Virus record (IMG/VR): IMGVR_UViG_2609460067_000009
Direction: 5' to 3' (one strand)
Source of the DNA: a virus
Taxonomy: Duplodnaviria > Heunggongvirae > Uroviricota > Caudoviricetes
Length of the DNA: 8,885 nt
Below are positions 1,746-8,772 of this stretch, piece by piece (the first letter of the stretch is position 1; every line of letters begins with the position of its first letter). The translations under genes were made by a program, and so were the position numbers. The notes under the pieces are model-generated. The model ran no database searches and was not told where the DNA came from. It saw only the letters and a list, made by a program, of their open reading frames with translations.

Positions 1746-2912
1746 TTAAACCCCTTTGACAACGTCAGCGTTGACCTGTGGAACCCCGATTTCAGCGGCC
1801 AGATTCATGGCGGCTATTACCAGGTTACTGACGGCCAGCGGATACAGCAGGCTGACCATATTTTTACGGTGACTTCCCGGATTGCTCAGGCGGGCACGTA
1901 TGGCATCCACTGCACCGGCGTCCATAATGTCCGTCAGCTGTTTACCGGCCCGTTGCAGTTTGAACGTCAGAAATTCTTCAAGGTTATTGTCCAGAGGCAG
2001 AAGTTCGACCACCTCACAGCGCTGAACGACTTCACGGACTTCCATATTGCGTTCAGACAGTTTTGTCGCCAGTTCCGGCTGGCCAATCAGCACGATGGAC
2101 AGCAGTTTTTTGAAACCGGACTCCAGCTCAAAAAAGCGTTTGAGGTGTTTCAGTGTCGGAATGGGCAGACTGTGGGCCTCCTCAATCACCAGAACGTGGC
2201 TGAACCCCGCCTGGCTGCTGTCTTTCAGGACGCGATGCAACTGGCGAAAACGGGCGTCCTGACTGCGTCTGATGCTTTCCAGTGGTGCGATGGTACTGAT
2301 AATGGCTTCGGCAATAGCTGCTGCCTTCAGGGTTTTCCCTTTCACATCGTTGTCTTCCATAGCGATGATGTATGGCTCGATAACAATTACCGGCGCATTC
2401 TCGCGGTTGATACGTTCAGTCAGGTCGCGGCGCAGCGTGGATTTACCCGCACCGGACTCACCGATGACGGCCATAAACCCACCATGACGGGCTGTCTGGT
2501 ACAGCGCCTCACGCACGTAGCGAATGTCCGGGGTGGTGAACACATCATCAGAACCCTGCATGGCTTCGTCGGCGAACGGGTCACGGAAAAGACCAAACGC
2601 TTTTTTGGTTGCTGGAAATAACACCTGTTTTTTGAGTAACATATTCTCTTCCTCACTGAGGCTCGTTTTATCTGTGGTACCCGCTGTACGGGGCGTGGCC
2701 GCGCCCTGTACAGCATCAAAACTCTTCGTTGTATCAATCCCCTGACTTTCCAGCCAGGACGCAAGACGCCGGCGCACTTCTCCGGGGCTGGTGCGGGGCC
2801 ACGCGTTATGATTCACAATCTGGGCCAGCGTGGCCTCAGAAACATCGACAGCTCTCGCCACCACCGCCTGTGGAATACGGGCCTCTTTCAGTTGCTGCTT
2901 CAGTACCAGCAT
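1746..2912 (-). CDS. transposition ATPase B (AAA+ / ExeA-TniB-like), N-terminal HTH
   Basis: Walker A GESGAGKST and Walker B VLVIEEAH. N-terminal HTH-like segment (IPQAVVARAVDVSEATLAQIV). Start placed at the ATG at 2912, which is preceded by GAGGAGG overlapping the transposase TGA stop. The ORF-track start at 2951 would overlap the transposase by 29 nt. Confidence 0.85.
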   Translation of the reverse strand: MLVLKQQLKEARIPQAVVARAVDVSEATLAQIVNHNAWPRTSPGEVRRRLASWLESQGIDTTKSFDAVQGAATPRTAGTTDKTSLSEEENMLLKKQVLFPATKKAFGLFRDPFADEAMQGSDDVFTTPDIRYVREALYQTARHGGFMAVIGESGAGKSTLRRDLTERINRENAPVIVIEPYIIAMEDNDVKGKTLKAAAIAEAIISTIAPLESIRRSQDARFRQLHRVLKDSSQAGFSHVLVIEEAHSLPIPTLKHLKRFFELESGFKKLLSIVLIGQPELATKLSERNMEVREVVQRCEVVELLPLDNNLEEFLTFKLQRAGKQLTDIMDAGAVDAIRARLSNPGSHRKNMVSLLYPLAVSNLVIAAMNLAAEIGVPQVNADVVKGV

Positions 2913-2922
2913 GTTTCCCTCC

Positions 2923-4542
2923 TCAGTTGCCGTTAACAATGCTGATAACACTGCTGCGGGCCGGTGTGGTCAGCGTGGCCATGACTTCATCCAGTGCGGC
3001 TTCCGGTACGCCGTCCGGGTACTGTGCCGTTAACTGGCGGTAATGTTCCGGCGTCCAGGTAAGGCCGTCGGCGCTGAACTTATCGCGCAGGGCTTTCGCG
3101 GCCTCCACATGAGTCATGGGACGTTGTTCAGTGCGCGGCCCGCGTACGTCAGAGGCCTGACCACGCTTCGGCATATAGGCCGGAAGTGTGGTGTCGTCGA
3201 TATGTTTATACGGGTCAAGCCGCCCGCCGAACGGCAGCGCCTTCGCCTTGCGTGCGGCGGCTGCATCTGCGGCGTTGTCTGTACCGGTAACCAGCGCTTC
3301 GGTTTCTTTTGCCGCCATCTGTGCCGGGGTTTCCGGCAGGGCTTTGTAACTTTCGCCAAATACCGCCGCGCCTTCAGCAAAGCCAAACTCGTTCTTTCTG
3401 ACCTCTTCGACCAGGAAGAACGTCTCGTGGCCGTCCTCACCGGTCAGAACCACCTGTGCCACATCGCTGCGCCATGGGTTACGGGTAATCATCAGTTTTT
3501 CACCAACCAGTACGCCCGGTACCGTTGATACGTCAAATTCAGTGCCCCGGAACGAGACACGAAGTTTTGGCGTGACTTTGCGGAGTTCTGGTGCCGCCAC
3601 AGCCAGTTCACGACATACCTCAACGGAAGGCGCTTTTTTCAGCTGCTCAGCAGTAATCTTCAGCCAGATATCCGTGCGGGTTTTACCGTGGCGGCTGTGA
3701 ACAGCCGTGGCGTTAAAGTGGCTGCGCCATTTCGCGGCCAGCGCGTTGAGTTCTTCCAGACTGTGAACCGGCCGGAACTTCAGACCCGGCTCCAGCTTGC
3801 GTTCGATAATGTCACGCGCCTTTTCCACCTGTCCGGTGGCGCGGGCGTTATGCGGCTTGTGCGCTATCAGGTCGATGCCCAGTGAGCGGCACATGTTTTT
3901 CGTCATACCCGCGGTGTTTGCCGAGCCGGGGTCGAGATAGAGTATTTTCGGCACGCCGTGCAGCACGTCTGCGCCGCCACGCTCCTGCATGGCGTTGATA
4001 AGCACAGAACACAGGTTCTCACCTGATTCCGCGCCCGTCACATACTCAACGTAAATCCAGCCGCTGGCATGGTCGGTAATCTCGTAACTCCACACGCGGT
4101 CACTGGCGATACGGGCAAGGTTAGCGGGCTTGTTCTTGTAGAACTTCGCGCTGTCCATCACCTGCAGCCCTTTATGTCCATTGCTCAGGTAGTAAAGCGT
4201 GCAGAGTGAGGCGTCAATCTGCCAGACATGATTGGGATGCAGACTGGCCACTTCGGTATGTGGTGCAGGGGCATCCAGTTGTTCCGGGTGCAGGCCATAG
4301 TTACGCAGAGCACGGCTGATGGCATCTTCAGACAACGGGAAAAACTCACTGGTGGTTTCATCTGTTCTGCCTGCGGTGATAAAGCCGTTAGCCCGCAGGG
4401 TTTCCACTGCATCTGCGATGGAATAGAGACGCTTACCGTTCTTGCGGGTGGCCTCACGCAGTGTGGCAGATATCAGCGCGGCTTCGTCGCGGGTCAGGGC
4501 GCTGCGCCCGGCATCGGCGCGTTTTTTGCGTTTATCAGTCAC
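2923..4542 (-). CDS. DDE transposase (transposable-phage A protein, retroviral-integrase-like DD35E core)
   Basis: Large ORF immediately upstream of the AAA+ ATPase. Candidate catalytic residues in VWQIDAS or ITDHASGW, LYLDPGSANT and GQVEKA, with the last two about 36 residues apart. Start is ambiguous: GTG at 4542 overlaps the upstream stop as GTGACTGA and is favoured; the ORF-track start at 4647 is a TTG that would overlap the upstream gene by about 110 nt. Confidence 0.85.
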   Translation of the reverse strand: MTDKRKKRADAGRSALTRDEAALISATLREATRKNGKRLYSIADAVETLRANGFITAGRTDETTSEFFPLSEDAISRALRNYGLHPEQLDAPAPHTEVASLHPNHVWQIDASLCTLYYLSNGHKGLQVMDSAKFYKNKPANLARIASDRVWSYEITDHASGWIYVEYVTGAESGENLCSVLINAMQERGGADVLHGVPKILYLDPGSANTAGMTKNMCRSLGIDLIAHKPHNARATGQVEKARDIIERKLEPGLKFRPVHSLEELNALAAKWRSHFNATAVHSRHGKTRTDIWLKITAEQLKKAPSVEVCRELAVAAPELRKVTPKLRVSFRGTEFDVSTVPGVLVGEKLMITRNPWRSDVAQVVLTGEDGHETFFLVEEVRKNEFGFAEGAAVFGESYKALPETPAQMAAKETEALVTGTDNAADAAAARKAKALPFGGRLDPYKHIDDTTLPAYMPKRGQASDVRGPRTEQRPMTHVEAAKALRDKFSADGLTWTPEHYRQLTAQYPDGVPEAALDEVMATLTTPARSSVISIVNGN

Positions 4543-5401
4543 AGATGCCTGTTGGCTCGTCCGGCAGGTCAAATGTGGAGCGCAGGCTACGCGCTGTGCT
4601 TTCCAGTTGACAGACCAGGCCTGCCATGAAGTCTCTGGGGGTATCAATCATGTTTTCAGCACAATATGCGCACAGCGTCTCAAAAGCGCTGGACAGTCGG
4701 ACGGCGATAGCAGATTCCGCCTCAACCGCTAATGCTGTTACTTCCGCCCGCAGCTTCTTAACCTCCTCATCAGGCTCAGGCGGCTGAATACGGGATTTCT
4801 TCTCCAGTCTGGTGGAGAGTGAATCTATTTTTTCATTTTTGTCGGCGAGTACGCGCTGTTGTGCTGCGTTGGTTTCGCGCGCTTCGCGCAGGGCCTGACG
4901 CAATTCACGTACTGACATGCGATCAACGTCGTCAAGCGTCAGGCCGGCAACTGTGCCGCCGTCGGCCAATTCATCAAGTTCTTCATTATCCAGAACCATC
5001 AGGTCGTACAGTTTGGCTTTCCCCAAAACGCTCAACGTTGAGCGTTTTGTTGGCTCATCACCTTCTCCCAAAAACTTCATACTGGCTTGCATCATGCGGC
5101 GAGCAACTTGTGGTGCAAGTCCGAGTTCATTTTCTAAAATGTTTGTAAAATCACCGTGTGGCTCATTTTCTTTTAAGATGATCAGCCGCTTACCCGCTTC
5201 CAGCATAGATTCAGCACTCTGCGCCATATAAAAACGTGCTTCGTGAACAATGCGATCACGTTCATAAGGCAGTCCATCACCAAACTGCTGCATAATTTCC
5301 ATGCGATGCTGTGTCATAGCGTTCAAATTGACATTGATGTTATCTGACAGCGGAACCTCAACATTCAGTTCAGTGTTAACGGGTGATTTGGTGCGTCCCA
5401 T
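4535..5401 (-). CDS. hypothetical coiled-coil protein (early operon, between the regulators and the transposase)
   Basis: 288-aa ORF with an AAGGAG ribosome-binding site that overlaps the stop of the upstream gene. The central region is rich in charged heptad-like sequence (RELRQALREARETNAAQQRVLADKNEKIDSLSTRLEKK). No catalytic motif recognised. Confidence 0.6.
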   Translation of the reverse strand: MGRTKSPVNTELNVEVPLSDNINVNLNAMTQHRMEIMQQFGDGLPYERDRIVHEARFYMAQSAESMLEAGKRLIILKENEPHGDFTNILENELGLAPQVARRMMQASMKFLGEGDEPTKRSTLSVLGKAKLYDLMVLDNEELDELADGGTVAGLTLDDVDRMSVRELRQALREARETNAAQQRVLADKNEKIDSLSTRLEKKSRIQPPEPDEEVKKLRAEVTALAVEAESAIAVRLSSAFETLCAYCAENMIDTPRDFMAGLVCQLESTARSLRSTFDLPDEPTGICD

Positions 5402-5411
5402 TGATTACTCC

Positions 5412-5720
5412 TTACAAACGACTACCTGAAATAACTCGTTGGTTGATTTCGTTAATACGATCCTGTGCACGCGCCATCTCGTGACTGTGAGCCATGGCGA
5501 TCTGTAGTAACTGGATTCCCGGTGCGAAACGTCCGTTCTCTAATTTCATGGCCAGTCCCTCTTCAATAAGGGTATTAAGTGCTCGATTGATATTCGCCGG
5601 GGACTCCCCCAGGGCTGATGCCAGTTCACCGTTAGAAACACCGTTCAGAGCATGACCGCGTAGAGCTTTGAGTACACGTAGGATGCGGGTCCCAGAACTG
5701 GAAATATTTACTTTACTCAT
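5412..5720 (-). CDS. winged-helix/HTH DNA-binding protein
   Basis: About 102 aa from the ATG at 5720. HTH-like segment (VSNGELASALGESPANINRALNTLIEEGL). The longer ORF-track start at 5783 would overlap the upstream gene and is rejected. Confidence 0.6.
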   Translation of the reverse strand: MSKVNISSSGTRILRVLKALRGHALNGVSNGELASALGESPANINRALNTLIEEGLAMKLENGRFAPGIQLLQIAMAHSHEMARAQDRINEINQRVISGSRL

Positions 5721-5772: not shown

Positions 5773-5961
5773 TTATGCCGCATTTGACGTGGGTTTTAAT
5801 CCCAGTTTTACGGCAATTTCATGGGCTTTGCCGTAACGAGCTTTGGTCTGTCCATTGAGAACACGATAGACCTCATTGCGGCTGTAGCCGTGTTCTTCGG
5901 CCCAGCGGGTAAACGTGATACCACGCTGACGGAAGAGATTTTTAACTTGTTCGGAAGTCAT
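5773..5961 (-). CDS. small HTH DNA-binding protein at the Ner/Cro-equivalent position (Ner-like)
   Basis: 62-aa ORF, first gene of the minus-strand early operon, divergent from the repressor-like gene. Excellent AAGGAGA ribosome-binding site 5 nt upstream. Pattern RG-x-T-F-x-x-W-A-x-E-x-G...IA-x-x-LG resembles the Ner/Nlp family as I recall it. Confidence 0.55.
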   Translation of the reverse strand: MTSEQVKNLFRQRGITFTRWAEEHGYSRNEVYRVLNGQTKARYGKAHEIAVKLGLKPTSNAA

Positions 5962-6047
5962 TGTTGTCTCCTTTGTTGATGCAATGATGTTTGTTTTATA
6001 TGTGATAGATTATGAGAACTATTGTTCTCATTGTCAATGAGGTTTAT
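5962..6047. promoter_or_regulatory. divergent early/repressor control region (overlapping promoters and operator)
   Basis: AT-rich spacer between divergently oriented genes. Contains candidate -35/-10 elements (TTGATG ... TATATG), the ATATGTGATA motif and a perfect 8-4-8 inverted repeat. Confidence 0.45.
6012..6031. repeat. perfect inverted repeat ATGAGAAC-TATT-GTTCTCAT (candidate operator)
   Basis: 8-bp arms are exact reverse complements with a 4-bp spacer. It sits between the divergent promoters and the likely repressor start. Confidence 0.6.
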
Positions 6048-6473
6048 GTGAATTTTGATTCTCTTTGCGCGTCGCGGTTCAAAGCTGAGCGTTCGCGGTT
6101 ATCACTCAAGCAGGCTGAAGTAGCAGCCCTTTGTGGCGTTTCAAGAGAAATGTGGGGGAAATATGAACGAGGGGTTGCTGTTCCCGGAGGTGAGTTACTT
6201 GCAGCCTTTGCAAGAATTGGGGCCAATGTACAGTTCATTCTTACCGGGGAGTCATCAGGTATAACTTTATCACGTGATGAAATGGAGTTACTGCAGCACT
6301 ACCGGCAGGCACCATTACAGGTCAAAGGTTCAGTTTTGTCGGCCTTGACTACTGGCTCCTCCAGAGAACGGGCGGAACAGGTTATTCATGGAGATGTTCT
6401 GGGGAATGTTATCAAAGGTAACGTAACCATAGGAACAGGTGGAATAATGAACAAAAATACCAAGAGAAGATGA
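6048..6473 (+). CDS. XRE-family HTH transcriptional repressor (c-like lysogeny repressor candidate)
   Basis: HTH_XRE-like segment (LSLKQAEVAALCGVSREMWGKYERG). Divergent from the early operon. Start placed at GTG 6048, which has a GAGG ribosome-binding site 5 nt upstream. The in-frame ATG at 6012 lacks a ribosome-binding site and lies inside the palindrome. No S24 peptidase domain is evident. Confidence 0.65.
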   Translation: MNFDSLCASRFKAERSRLSLKQAEVAALCGVSREMWGKYERGVAVPGGELLAAFARIGANVQFILTGESSGITLSRDEMELLQHYRQAPLQVKGSVLSALTTGSSRERAEQVIHGDVLGNVIKGNVTIGTGGIMNKNTKRR

Positions 6474-7456
6474 GTAAAGAGAAGCAAACAGTTAACGGGG
6501 ATGTGGGTAACGTTGTCAGCGGTGATGTTACCATTCATAACTATTCTGCTGACATACTTCCTTCGGCCCAGCAACCAATTTCGTTGCTGCAAAAACGCGA
6601 TTTACACAGATTGATGGATGAATTGGTTGATCTGGGGGAAAGTAAGCGCGAGCTATGGATGACGATCCACACGAAACTTAATACCAAAACAGTTAATGAA
6701 ATGACTGCGGCTGATTATCATGGTGCGGTTGAGATCCTTCAGAGATATGCACAACAGATCCAGAATATGAAGGACTGTAATCTTCTGGTCAGCAAAATAA
6801 TGGCGCTTACTGACCCTGGGTATCGTCTTGACCGTGACAGATACTGTCTGAAGCATTTCGGTACAACCCATCTTAAAGGCCTAGACAAAGAGCAGTTGCA
6901 GGCTGTGTTTGGTTATTTTGATGATCTGCTGAATATTCGTGATGAGAGTAAAACTCTATCACCTCCATCGGAAAGCGGTGCAAAATCAGTCGCAACTGTA
7001 CCAACCAGAAGCCGGAAGCCTCATGTAGTAGTGTTGGGGGGAGTGTTAGTTCTTGTAGCAATATTTTTCGTGGGAATGATTGTGTTCGCTGGTAAATGGG
7101 GAAATGCCAAAGCAGTAGCTTCTACTGAAACCAGCGTTTTTAACATTAAAACCAACGATAAAATAATAGAAGATTCCATCCCCGCACTGCGCAGCATGTT
7201 TCCAGGGTTAAATAAGTACTCAGATGATTTCCATTCGGTTTCAAGCTACAAGCAAAAAACGGGCTGGCATACCCTTAAATTTACTGTATCAGCAAAGGCA
7301 TCCGTCCCCGAAAATTATAGTGTTAAGGGCAAGGTTTGTTACATTAACATAAGCCCTGATGGTAGTTATGCTCGGGTTTTGACTGCTCCATGTCGTTCAC
7401 TGCTACTTGATCAGCAAAGCACTCCTGACAGTAAATACCGTTTTATTCTTAAATAG
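6470..7456 (+). CDS. single-pass membrane protein, unknown function (cargo gene 1 of repressor operon)
   Basis: 328-aa ORF whose ATG overlaps the repressor stop (ATGA at 6470-6473). One strongly hydrophobic segment (VVVLGGVLVLVAIFFVGMIVFAG) is preceded by basic residues (TRSRKPH). About 185 aa lie before it and about 120 aa after it, with two Cys in the latter. AT-rich codon usage unlike the transposition genes. Confidence 0.65.
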   Translation: MSKEKQTVNGDVGNVVSGDVTIHNYSADILPSAQQPISLLQKRDLHRLMDELVDLGESKRELWMTIHTKLNTKTVNEMTAADYHGAVEILQRYAQQIQNMKDCNLLVSKIMALTDPGYRLDRDRYCLKHFGTTHLKGLDKEQLQAVFGYFDDLLNIRDESKTLSPPSESGAKSVATVPTRSRKPHVVVLGGVLVLVAIFFVGMIVFAGKWGNAKAVASTETSVFNIKTNDKIIEDSIPALRSMFPGLNKYSDDFHSVSSYKQKTGWHTLKFTVSAKASVPENYSVKGKVCYINISPDGSYARVLTAPCRSLLLDQQSTPDSKYRFILK

Positions 7457-7546
7457 AAAATAACAGCTGAATTACCATGGGATCAGAAAAAAGACAAAGG
7501 CGGCATCATGCTGCGTTCTGAAATTTTAATGTAAAAGGTGATGAAC

Positions 7547-8128
7547 ATGGCAGGGATTCAGGTTATCGCAGGAAGTTTTCCTAAAGGGTGGGCAAGCATG
7601 GGGTTCGGTACCATCGTGTTTGCCAAAAAACCAAAACAAGGCTTTCCTGAAAATATTGTATTAAATCTGAAAGAAGAGCTTTTATCGATTGAACTTGCGG
7701 ATAGTGAAGAGGAAAGCCGTATAGGTAAGGCGGCAGGCGCAGGTTTGCTTGGTGGATTAATCTTTGGTGGTGCAGGGTTGGTCATTGGAGGTTTGCTTGG
7801 TGCGGCGGACAAGACGAAAAAAACTATCACTTTTAAGGCAATGTTTACGGGAAATAGGTTACTTCTGGCTAAAACAGATTCAAAAACTTTTGTAAAACTT
7901 CAGTCAATTGCTGCTGATAATGCCCATAACGCATCTGTAATCAACATGAAGCAAACTAACAGGGGCGATGTTTCTTCTCGTAAACAACTAACAGAAAATC
8001 CACAGCAGCAAGACTTACCTGCGCCCGCTACAACAGTAAAAATGACTGCCAAAGATAAGTTAGAATCGGCTCTTGGGCTGGGAATCATCGTTATAGCTGT
8101 TTGGGCAATAATACACTTCTTTTTTTAG
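7547..8128 (+). CDS. glycine-zipper membrane protein, unknown function (cargo gene 2)
   Basis: About 193 aa from the ATG at 7547 (AGGTG ribosome-binding site 6 nt upstream; the ORF-track start at 7538 is a GTG). Glycine-zipper hydrophobic segment GAGLLGGLIFGGAGLVIGGLLG with GxxxG repeats, plus a C-terminal hydrophobic helix (LGLGIIVIAVWAIIHFFF). Confidence 0.6.
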   Translation: MAGIQVIAGSFPKGWASMGFGTIVFAKKPKQGFPENIVLNLKEELLSIELADSEEESRIGKAAGAGLLGGLIFGGAGLVIGGLLGAADKTKKTITFKAMFTGNRLLLAKTDSKTFVKLQSIAADNAHNASVINMKQTNRGDVSSRKQLTENPQQQDLPAPATTVKMTAKDKLESALGLGIIVIAVWAIIHFFF

Positions 8129-8130
8129 TG

Positions 8131-8154
8131 CAGCCCTTCAGGGCTGTTTCTGTT
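8131..8154 (+). terminator. rho-independent terminator (hairpin plus T-tract)
   Basis: CAGCCC-TTCA-GGGCTG stem-loop immediately followed by TTTCTGTT, 3 nt after the stop of the glycine-zipper gene. Confidence 0.5.
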
Positions 8155-8165
8155 CAGGAGGTATC

Positions 8166-8642
8166 TTAAGGATTATCCGGGGCGTTTTCCTGTTTGCCGT
8201 ACTTCGGAGACGAACAACATTCTGTTGGCTGACCGGTGAGTTTACGTAACTCCTTCATGAGCAGCTCCTGATCGTAAACTGTCATCAGTGCCGCAATGGT
8301 GGCATGCAGTGCATCGGGCAGTATCCAGGGTTGCCGGCCCGTGGGGCATATAACATCCAGCAGCTCATTCGTCCGACAGATACGCTCCTCGCCGTATGAC
8401 AACAGGCCCTGTCCCGTGTATTCCTCCAGCCTGATCACTGTGCCACCCCGTGGCTTCTGCCAGGTCGTCAGATCTTCGCCATTCATACGGCGCTCATTCT
8501 CCACGTCAGCAGCATCGACAATGACGCTGTTTCCGAGTTCCTGTTTCACCATCTCTTCTATCCGCGCCAGTACGTAACTTTTACCGCTGCCCACAGGACC
8601 GGACACAGTGACAGTGATGACCGGATTCAGTGTGTGCGTCAT
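8166..8642 (-). CDS. small P-loop NTPase (Walker A), unknown function
   Basis: 158-aa ORF with a GAGGAG ribosome-binding site 8 nt upstream. Walker A GPVGSGKS near the N-terminus and a possible Walker B VIVDAAD. Convergent with the cargo operon; GC-richer than the cargo genes. Confidence 0.6.
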   Translation of the reverse strand: MTHTLNPVITVTVSGPVGSGKSYVLARIEEMVKQELGNSVIVDAADVENERRMNGEDLTTWQKPRGGTVIRLEEYTGQGLLSYGEERICRTNELLDVICPTGRQPWILPDALHATIAALMTVYDQELLMKELRKLTGQPTECCSSPKYGKQENAPDNP

Positions 8643-8772
8643 ATCGTATTCTCCTCTGTGAATAATTCATCGTTTATCCTGCACATCCCGTATCCCCGGC
8701 TCTCTTAACGCGCTTTAAAATCCTTCGCGCCCTGTATTTGTGATGCTGTCTCCACCAGATAAGGAGACACAC

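Follow-up and report, generated by a model that had tools for sequence, protein, structure and literature searches.

Why should the C-terminal tail of a prophage repressor resemble the N-terminus of the membrane protein encoded by the next gene? The question is raised by a stretch of 8,885 nucleotides (nt) from a Caudoviricetes record (IMG/VR IMGVR_UViG_2609460067_000009), which as a whole we call the window. The window comprises the immunity and early region of a Mu-like transposable prophage, 37 kb in length, which is inserted between grxA and ybjC in Escherichia coli. On its plus strand, an XRE-type repressor gene is followed at once by the gene of a membrane protein, referred to here as the partner, whose ATG overlaps the repressor stop codon (ATGA, a 4-nt overlap). 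The original prediction, made from the letters of the window, was that the two proteins share a short motif at these adjoining ends. Comparison of the two proteins with those of related loci gives good support to a co-varying pair: two proteins made from one operon carry terminal motifs that are conserved, matched by class and under selection. The pair is not explained by the current annotation, and it is more general than the window alone shows.

Translation of the window places both peptides where they had been predicted. Positions 6387-6434 encode repressor residues H126-G141, HGDVLGNVIKGNVTIG, followed by TGGIMNKNTKRR, and positions 6494-6538 encode partner residues N9-H23, NGDVGNVVSGDVTIH. 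The repressor does not end at GTGG, as had been stated, since the basic stretch IMNKNTKRR follows. The best local alignment of the two full-length proteins is exactly that of repressor residues 123-141 with partner residues 7-22. Its BLOSUM62 score of 55 was reached by none of 20,000 composition-preserving shuffles of either protein (maxima 44 and 51), and the likeness is real at the protein level. No third copy of the motif was found when all six frames of the 37-kb prophage were scanned, the next best score being 38.

At the DNA level, the two segments are 60% identical over 60 nt, which is a weak similarity. The alignment score (6370-6473 vs 6470-6570) was equalled by 8 of 2000 shuffles, and other parts of the window give about the same score. 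Among the 11 identical residues of the window pair, 4 codons are identical, and 3.8 would be expected from codon usage. Across 28 pairs, 125 of 287 identical residues have the same codon, slightly above the 103.5 expected by chance. Given that codon identity in the window is at the chance level, the DNA likeness is just what the protein likeness entails. Furthermore, the near-random synonymous sites show that it is selection, and not recent duplication or gene conversion, that keeps the copies alike. A recent local duplication or gene conversion was therefore rejected, and the diverged duplication that had been suggested is not visible in the DNA, although a local duplication may be the remote origin of the pair. 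By these codon comparisons, the match is old and is kept at the protein level. Fusion of the two genes by frameshift or readthrough was also considered. At most loci, the repressor stop and the partner start overlap or are separated by a gap of up to 36 nt, and since the spacing and the frame relation vary among loci (-3 to +36 nt), this possibility was rejected as well.

Homologues of both proteins carry the motif. Among 20 partner homologues, with identities down to 44%, residues G10, G13-N14-V15-V16-S17-G18 and V20-T21-I22 are nearly invariant, and the linker after the motif is variable. Repressors with the same tail are 83-91% identical in the tail and down to 40-45% identical in the DNA-binding part. 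In the loci of motif class A, the tail and the partner move as one block and the helix-turn-helix (HTH) part is exchanged. The ratio of synonymous to nonsynonymous codon changes in these loci is 39:7 for the tail and 24:2 for the partner N-terminus. The excess of synonymous changes, together with the conservation, indicates that both motifs are translated and that, as judged from these codon changes, both copies are under purifying selection.

About 120 loci were collected from genomes, viral contigs and assemblies, and the repressor tail was compared with the N-terminus of the next gene's product. Where the tail differs, the downstream N-terminus differs with it: in about 40 loci the two match each other, and these loci represent at least 14 motif classes (examples in Table 1). 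The cognate scores of 53 non-redundant pairs add up to 2082, compared with 1320 ± 67 when the pairs are permuted (z = 11.4), and none of 10,000 permutations reached the cognate sum. Where the repressor has no Gly-rich tail, the downstream gene has no match (cognate scores ≤30). Two apparent exceptions were resolved: in L062, two tandem tailed repressors precede the motif-bearing gene, which encodes a protein of the Flk_N type (4000-5500), and in L075 the matched partner is located 650 nt further downstream. One locus, L025, was kept among the 53 permutation pairs (cognate score 75 of the 2082) and was left out of the codon, composition and class counts. At about 5300-5450 of L025, the likeness of tail and N-terminus (NGCKL...NGCKLTGASS) is a tandem DNA repeat read in overlapping open reading frames.

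Table 1. Repressor tails and the N-termini encoded by the gene downstream, by locus.
Locus	Repressor tail	Downstream N-terminus	Common to both
Window	GDVLGNVIKGNVTI	GDVGNVVSGDVTI	
L002	FNGDISGQFAGNQIIN	FNGTAQGQFSSRDIIN	
L011	SGKGNRVAGRDFNENKK	TGGQNRVAGRDFNENK	
L094	GHRFALGDYHE	EHRIALGDYYE	HR(F/I)ALGDY
L071	DGQVSAENIYNI	VGQVAANNIYNI	GQV.A.NIYNI
L086	GAQAAGRNIVN	GGQAAGRDINN	
L101	KTVNVTSQTAGRNIKN	KTVTRQSAGRDIRN	
L102	QHNTGSGVVQIGSVGGN	QHNGGERSIQIGNVTGN	QHN.G..IQIG.V.GN
L110 (Mannheimia)	HGGQFSTGTINNY	HGGQFGQVINNY	HGGQF...INNY
L113	FHGEVGQV	FGDVGQV	
L115	PVHGAVAGGNI	PVHGHVIGGNL	PVHG.V.GGN
L116	VVQIGGNNTG	VVQIAGNNSG	VVQI.GNN.G
L117	GDGNVQIGS	GNANVQIGS	
L108	QQFNAPIHQMAGRDI	QQFNAPVQQVANRDV	QQFNAP..Q.A.RD

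These results bear on the explanation that two segments of low complexity are alike by chance, or that a duplication left a neutral scar. In its favor are the shortness and the biased composition of the segments, and their weak DNA similarity. Against this stand the shuffling result, the near invariance of the motif, the predominance of synonymous changes in both copies and the permutation z score, and we find the explanation scarcely credible. A scar of module acquisition, one of the options first offered, is rejected for the same kind of reason: both copies are under purifying selection, and they co-vary class by class.

The module is also found outside Mu-like phages. The P2-like Escherichia phage 520873 (L118, NC_049344; 1819-2896) carries it, with a tailed repressor, gp04 (...NISGGNNRIAGRDYNETKGR), followed by an unannotated Flk_N gene that starts with MAVNSNGSNNRVAGRDFHE and is broken by a frameshift (2284-2451 and 2549-2896). 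Of the 36 motif-bearing downstream proteins, 22 combine a helical Flk_N domain with a membrane anchor after it, at the C-terminus (partial matches to NF007987, E 1e-12 to 1e-14), three are zinc-ribbon proteins with two transmembrane (TM) segments, and others are unrelated small membrane proteins. The NRVAGRDY class heads both Flk_N proteins and the unrelated zinc-ribbon membrane proteins; the motif is thus a portable adaptor and not part of one domain. The phage Flk_N family is small: a set of 1.84 billion proteins contains 112 representatives (E ≤ 1e-3). Almost every Flk_N-type representative listed starts with a Gly-rich motif, whereas the genuine Flk-like ones (MQPIS...) do not have one. 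The label of 'cargo' that had been given to the partner is doubtful, as the gene is the constant companion of the repressor in the immunity operon.

What could such a pair do? We incline, with moderate confidence, to a co-evolving pair of β-strand motifs by which the immunity repressor would dock to, or co-assemble with, its membrane-anchored partner from the same operon. The two halves would be the flexible C-terminal tail of the repressor and the flexible cytoplasmic N-terminus of the partner, both Gly/Asn/Val-rich β-strands. Like motifs would pair or stack, as a β-zipper or by cross-β co-assembly, so that part of the repressor pool would be held at, or assembled on, the partner in the inner membrane. 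The most likely consequence would be control of the amount of free, operator-competent repressor, with the partner acting as a membrane-tethered antirepressor or buffer, the state of which could respond to what the partner senses. Control might run in either direction, from the partner to the repressor or from the repressor tail to the partner. An interaction of repressor and membrane protein, or a shared oligomerization, was among the functions first suggested, and it fits best with the co-variation of at least 14 classes, the purifying selection and the portability, although the interaction itself is deduced from these. Such a link, if true, would connect the cell envelope with the genetic switch of these phages. 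The induction decision is poorly understood in Mu-like and many other non-SOS prophages.

The low model confidence of both motifs fits docking of this kind. In the AlphaFold2 monomers, the predicted local distance difference test score (pLDDT) stays under 50 in residues 117-153 of the repressor and 1-28 of the partner, and the neighboring domains are modeled with confidence. The shared cores are 12-27 residues long (mean 18.6) and are enriched in G (2.2-fold), N (2.8-fold) and V (1.4-fold), and also in H and D. P (0.04-fold), L (0.07-fold) and K (0.7-fold) are depleted, and Q (0.97-fold) and I (1.1-fold) are close to background. The suggestion that the repeat resembles a turn of a β-helix is compatible with this composition. 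However, both segments are modeled with low confidence in the monomers, neither protein matches a left-handed β-helix (hexapeptide) or bactofilin family in Pfam (E ≤ 0.01), and there are only about two short sub-repeats, so membership of these families was rejected.

Several observations weigh against docking. A few of the 36 motif-bearing partners have no detectable TM segment. In L017, L019 and L021, a tailed repressor has no partner within 5 kb. Conversely, some downstream proteins carry the Gly-rich motif though the C-terminus of the repressor differs (L005-L009, L015-L020), and each motif can thus exist alone. In the large NRVAGRDY class, the cognate partner ranks 2-15 and is not the best-scoring one, and no fine specificity can be seen there. 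Finally, co-transfer of adjacent DNA would by itself keep existing pairs together: the tail and N-terminal motifs are about 100 nt apart in the locus, so recombination carries both, which explains why pairs stay joined. Co-transfer does not explain, however, why the copies in at least 14 classes have not drifted apart.

Much of the same evidence can be read as self-association only. Here, the motif of each protein would serve its own oligomerization, and the likeness would result from common origin and co-inheritance, with no cross-talk. The occurrence of each motif without the other at some loci, the lack of fine specificity within class C and the movement of the class A tail with its downstream gene as one block, with the HTH part exchanged, are all in keeping with this. 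Nevertheless, the synonymous sites are randomized, and copies fitted only to themselves should have drifted apart, but the match persists in at least 14 classes. Moreover, co-assembly is to be expected in any case of two like, self-associating motifs that one operon produces in the same cell. We therefore judge self-association alone to be unlikely.

Some loci show a variant arrangement: L005-L009 (Lonsdalea), L015, L016, L018, L020 and L087 (Pseudomonas), and L024 and L026. The C-terminal domain of their repressors is of another, helical kind (...VLKLV(I/V)N(H/R)), and in the downstream proteins a Gly-rich motif lies internally (ITISVGGDNPGSIHVGSVVNIN; IKIKGDHGNINLG), after an N-terminal helix. 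The downstream proteins of Lonsdalea, P. putida and Tepidicella have no matching motif within 5 kb. Coupling at these variant loci, if any, works differently. In L021 and L022 (metagenome-assembled genomes of Burkholderiaceae, about 5415-5498), the repressor tail is GSIRIDGTVHGHVVQGDVVQHGPV, with no matching partner within 5 kb; we take this tail to resemble actinobacterial NLR-associated amyloid motifs.

A further possibility is that a common third factor reads both motifs. This could be a protease or its adaptor, for which the motifs would be degrons, a chaperone, or a phage antirepressor that clears both proteins on induction. Both motifs are terminal and are modeled with low confidence, and the basic end of the repressor is, we presume, similar to the MuA-type ends recognized by ClpX. 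The Mu repressor is itself controlled via its C-terminus through ClpXP. On the other hand, phages of the same hosts carry different classes, with classes A and C both present in Escherichia and Serratia phages, which argues against a fixed host receptor. A degron recognized by the host would leave the phage-specific matching unexplained, and a phage-encoded reader would need to co-vary, while the prophage has no third copy of the motif. Thus, a common reader appears decidedly unlikely.

The arrangement of the genes recalls a toxin-antitoxin (TA) system, in which the membrane protein would be harmful, or an exclusion effector, silenced by the repressor tail and freed on loss of the repressor. 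Type II TA operons with HTH-XRE antitoxins have the same gene order and 4-nt overlap, the HTH alone gives weak matches to antitoxin families, and the downstream proteins are small and located in the membrane. But these matches are confined to the HTH and fall well below the cut-offs (HipB-like, 19.9 vs 71.65; MqsA, 19.3 vs 61.8), the partner matches no toxin or PADLOC family, and the regulator to which its Flk_N domain is related is non-toxic. TA partners, furthermore, normally have no common motif. A TA-like function is consequently very improbable. A PADLOC scan for defense systems gave no relevant match, and none for the partner.

Turning again to β-strand docking, the closest known analogue, by likeness of organization and composition, is provided by the gene pairs of amyloid signaling (BASS; Bab/Agp; fungal HET-S/NWD2). 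Amyloid-signaling motifs are about 20-25 residues long, rich in G/N/Q/V/I, poor in K/P/L and of β propensity, and a bias of the G/N/V type is reported for bacterial and fungal amyloid-signaling motifs and for β-solenoids. Bacterial BASS1-10 pair with Bell/NLR partners (bioRxiv 10.1101/2020.01.06.895854), and BASS11, Bab/Agp, comes from an E. coli prophage defense island (bioRxiv 10.1101/2024.11.07.622273). As in those pairs, a C-terminal motif in one protein and an N-terminal motif in the product of the adjacent gene are matched within the pair, there are many matched sequence classes, and different domains can carry the motif. The low AlphaFold2 confidence outside an assembly is also alike, and the composition is alike in part (G/N/V-rich, P/L/K-poor). 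Part of the class C partners have a second, degenerate copy 15 residues after the first, (A/I)(G/A)RD(F/I/M)xNI, like the second pseudo-repeat of HET-s-type effectors; the repressor tail has one copy. However, the cores are shorter (mean 18.6 vs about 25 residues), Q is not enriched and I is hardly so. The pair also joins a DNA-binding repressor to a Flk_N or other membrane protein, and not a NLR/STAND/TPR sensor to a cell-death effector. For this reason, the pair, known here from its sequence, resembles the amyloid-signaling pairs but is not classed as one. HTH or repressor partners are not mentioned in the amyloid-signaling literature searched, and literature searches found no described motif pair of a repressor and a membrane protein.

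A stronger version of co-assembly is that BcepMu-like and P2-like phages couple the repressor to the membrane protein by a self-templating β motif of the amyloid-signaling type, which would switch the prophage. Clustering or conformational change of the partner, for example on envelope stress or superinfection, would nucleate co-polymerization of repressor tails. We offer this tentatively and regard it as possible but doubtful. If true, it would be a non-proteolytic, SOS-independent and possibly bistable mechanism of induction or immunity, and the first amyloid-like signaling in the transcriptional control of a virus. With any link between the two proteins, the principle of adjacent genes with a shared terminal motif would extend from immune cell-death systems to transcriptional regulation. 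A repressor C-terminus that matches the N-terminus of the next gene's product may serve as a search rule for more such pairs.

Other known systems show parts of the proposed behavior. RstC of Vibrio RS1 is an antirepressor that inactivates a phage repressor by sequestration or aggregation. The repressor of vibriophage VP882 is likewise inactivated by sequestration or aggregation, by Qtip (bioRxiv 10.1101/2019.12.16.877910). In these, as in what we propose, a small phage protein takes the repressor off the DNA by binding or aggregation and not by cleavage. Qtip and RstC differ in being soluble, in being made on induction instead of being co-transcribed with the repressor, and in having no motif in common with it. 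In phage Mu, also transposable, the flexible C-terminal tail of the repressor governs its activity or fate (ClpXP), and a vir partner with an altered tail can act in trans on wild-type repressor. The present repressor is of the XRE HTH type and not of the Mu c type, and its proposed trans-acting partner is a separate membrane protein. Flk (Fluke/RflH) is an inhibitor of the flagellar type III secretion switch (PMC13344023), a membrane-anchored holder of a cytoplasmic state. The phage proteins have the homologous N-terminal helical domain, and most members consist of this cytoplasmic domain and a C-terminal membrane anchor. Genuine Flk-like representatives, unlike the phage partners, start with MQP(I/V)..PG and have no Gly-rich motif. 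The window partner, unlike Flk, has an added, presumably periplasmic domain, and nothing ties it to flagella.

The features of the window are collected in Table 2. The window partner belongs to phrog_10002. It has a precomputed match to PF27202 (Flk_N) and a TM segment after this domain, as expected for a Flk_N protein with an anchor. Its match to the NCBIfam model of Flk, NF007987 (E 2.9e-12), covers model positions 14-143 of 339 with 46.6 bits, compared with a cut-off of 353, and a full Flk equivalog was therefore rejected. The sequence RSRKPH before the TM segment suggests an N-in topology, and the C-terminal α/β domain is presumably periplasmic. A confident extra domain of this type after the TM segment is found in the window protein and in L041.

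Table 2. Positions of features in the window.
Feature	Position	Strand	Remarks
rve transposase gene	2923-4647	minus	
Ner-like HTH gene	5773-5961	minus	
Promoter-like site for divergent early operon	6009..6037	minus	TTGACA-17-CATAAT, 11/12
XRE-type repressor gene	6012-6473	plus	annotated 153 aa; AlphaFold2 model: HTH domain residues 17-78, helical hairpin 88-115, low-confidence tail 117-153
Repressor-tail motif Q123-G141, QVIHGDVLGNVIKGNVTIG	6378..6434	plus	G127, G131, G136 nearly invariant in family
Basic C-terminal end IMNKNTKRR	6444..6470	plus	Lys/Arg-rich end after motif in most tail classes
Partner gene	6470-7456	plus	328-aa membrane protein
Partner N-terminal motif T7-I22, TVNGDVGNVVSGDVTI	6488..6535	plus	nearly invariant in 20 homologues
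Cytoplasmic helical Flk_N domain	6557..6949	plus	about residues 30-160; pLDDT >90
Single TM segment	7049..7120	plus	about residues 194-217; sequence, hydropathy; model helix 191-205
C-terminal α/β domain	7142..7453	plus	two conserved Cys; absent from most family members
Second membrane protein gene	7538-8128	plus	third in repressor operon
Terminator-like hairpin after third operon gene	8130-8147	plus	sole terminator-like site in region

The repressor matches PF13560 (HTH_31) with 30.5 bits (cut-off 27) and PF01381 (HTH_3) with 23.0 bits (cut-off 23), as well as phrog_8 and phrog_2328. It is divergent from the operon of Ner-like, winged-HTH, DUF3102, transposase, ExeA-like and Gam genes, as is expected of the immunity repressor of a temperate phage. 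By its HTH domain and its position, it is classified as an XRE-type prophage immunity repressor. We found 107 relatives. They have in common the HTH and the helical hairpin (DExxLLxxYRxAPxxVKxAxLAAL), and many add a Gly-rich tail that ends in Lys/Arg; these tails fall into widely different sequence classes. The promoter-like site at 6037-6009 falls inside the annotated 5' end of the gene (ATG 6012), and many homologues begin at a position that corresponds to GTG 6048 (MNFDSL...), a codon with GAGG before it. Because of this inner promoter and these homologue starts, the true start is probably GTG 6048, giving a protein of 141 aa, and 5962-6047 is probably the operator and promoter region, as predicted from the sequence.

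The hairpin at 8130-8147 would end an operon of repressor, partner and second membrane protein. The product of the third gene (193-196 aa, phrog_12025) contains a hydrophobic stretch that resembles a Gly zipper (GAGLLGGLIFGGAGLVIGGLLG), has a TM segment at its C-terminus, and matches no known family. Beyond the repressor operon, a convergent gene for a P-loop protein precedes the lysis and structural genes. The convergent gene (8166-8642, minus strand) encodes a 158-aa protein of phrog_3787, which RefSeq names 'ABC transporter ATPase', although its AAA matches are weak. At least 80% of 5950-8700 is present in 97 complete E. coli genomes, and within this region only the 8166-8642 stretch is common to a deposited phage (Escherichia phage PhiKM, 94.8% identity).

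The prophage is of the BcepMu type, and its early operon is inverted relative to the late genes. Other early genes on the minus strand encode a winged-HTH protein, a DUF3102 protein, an ExeA/AAA analogue of MuB, and Gam. The early-operon layout (small HTH, winged HTH, DUF3102, rve transposase, ExeA-like ATPase; compared at window positions 1746-2951 and 4535-5401) also accompanies the module in L109, L110 and L116. The hosts that share both layout and module include distant ones, among them Pasteurellaceae and metagenomic contigs, which makes the pair of repressor and partner a stable component of this transposable-phage lineage.

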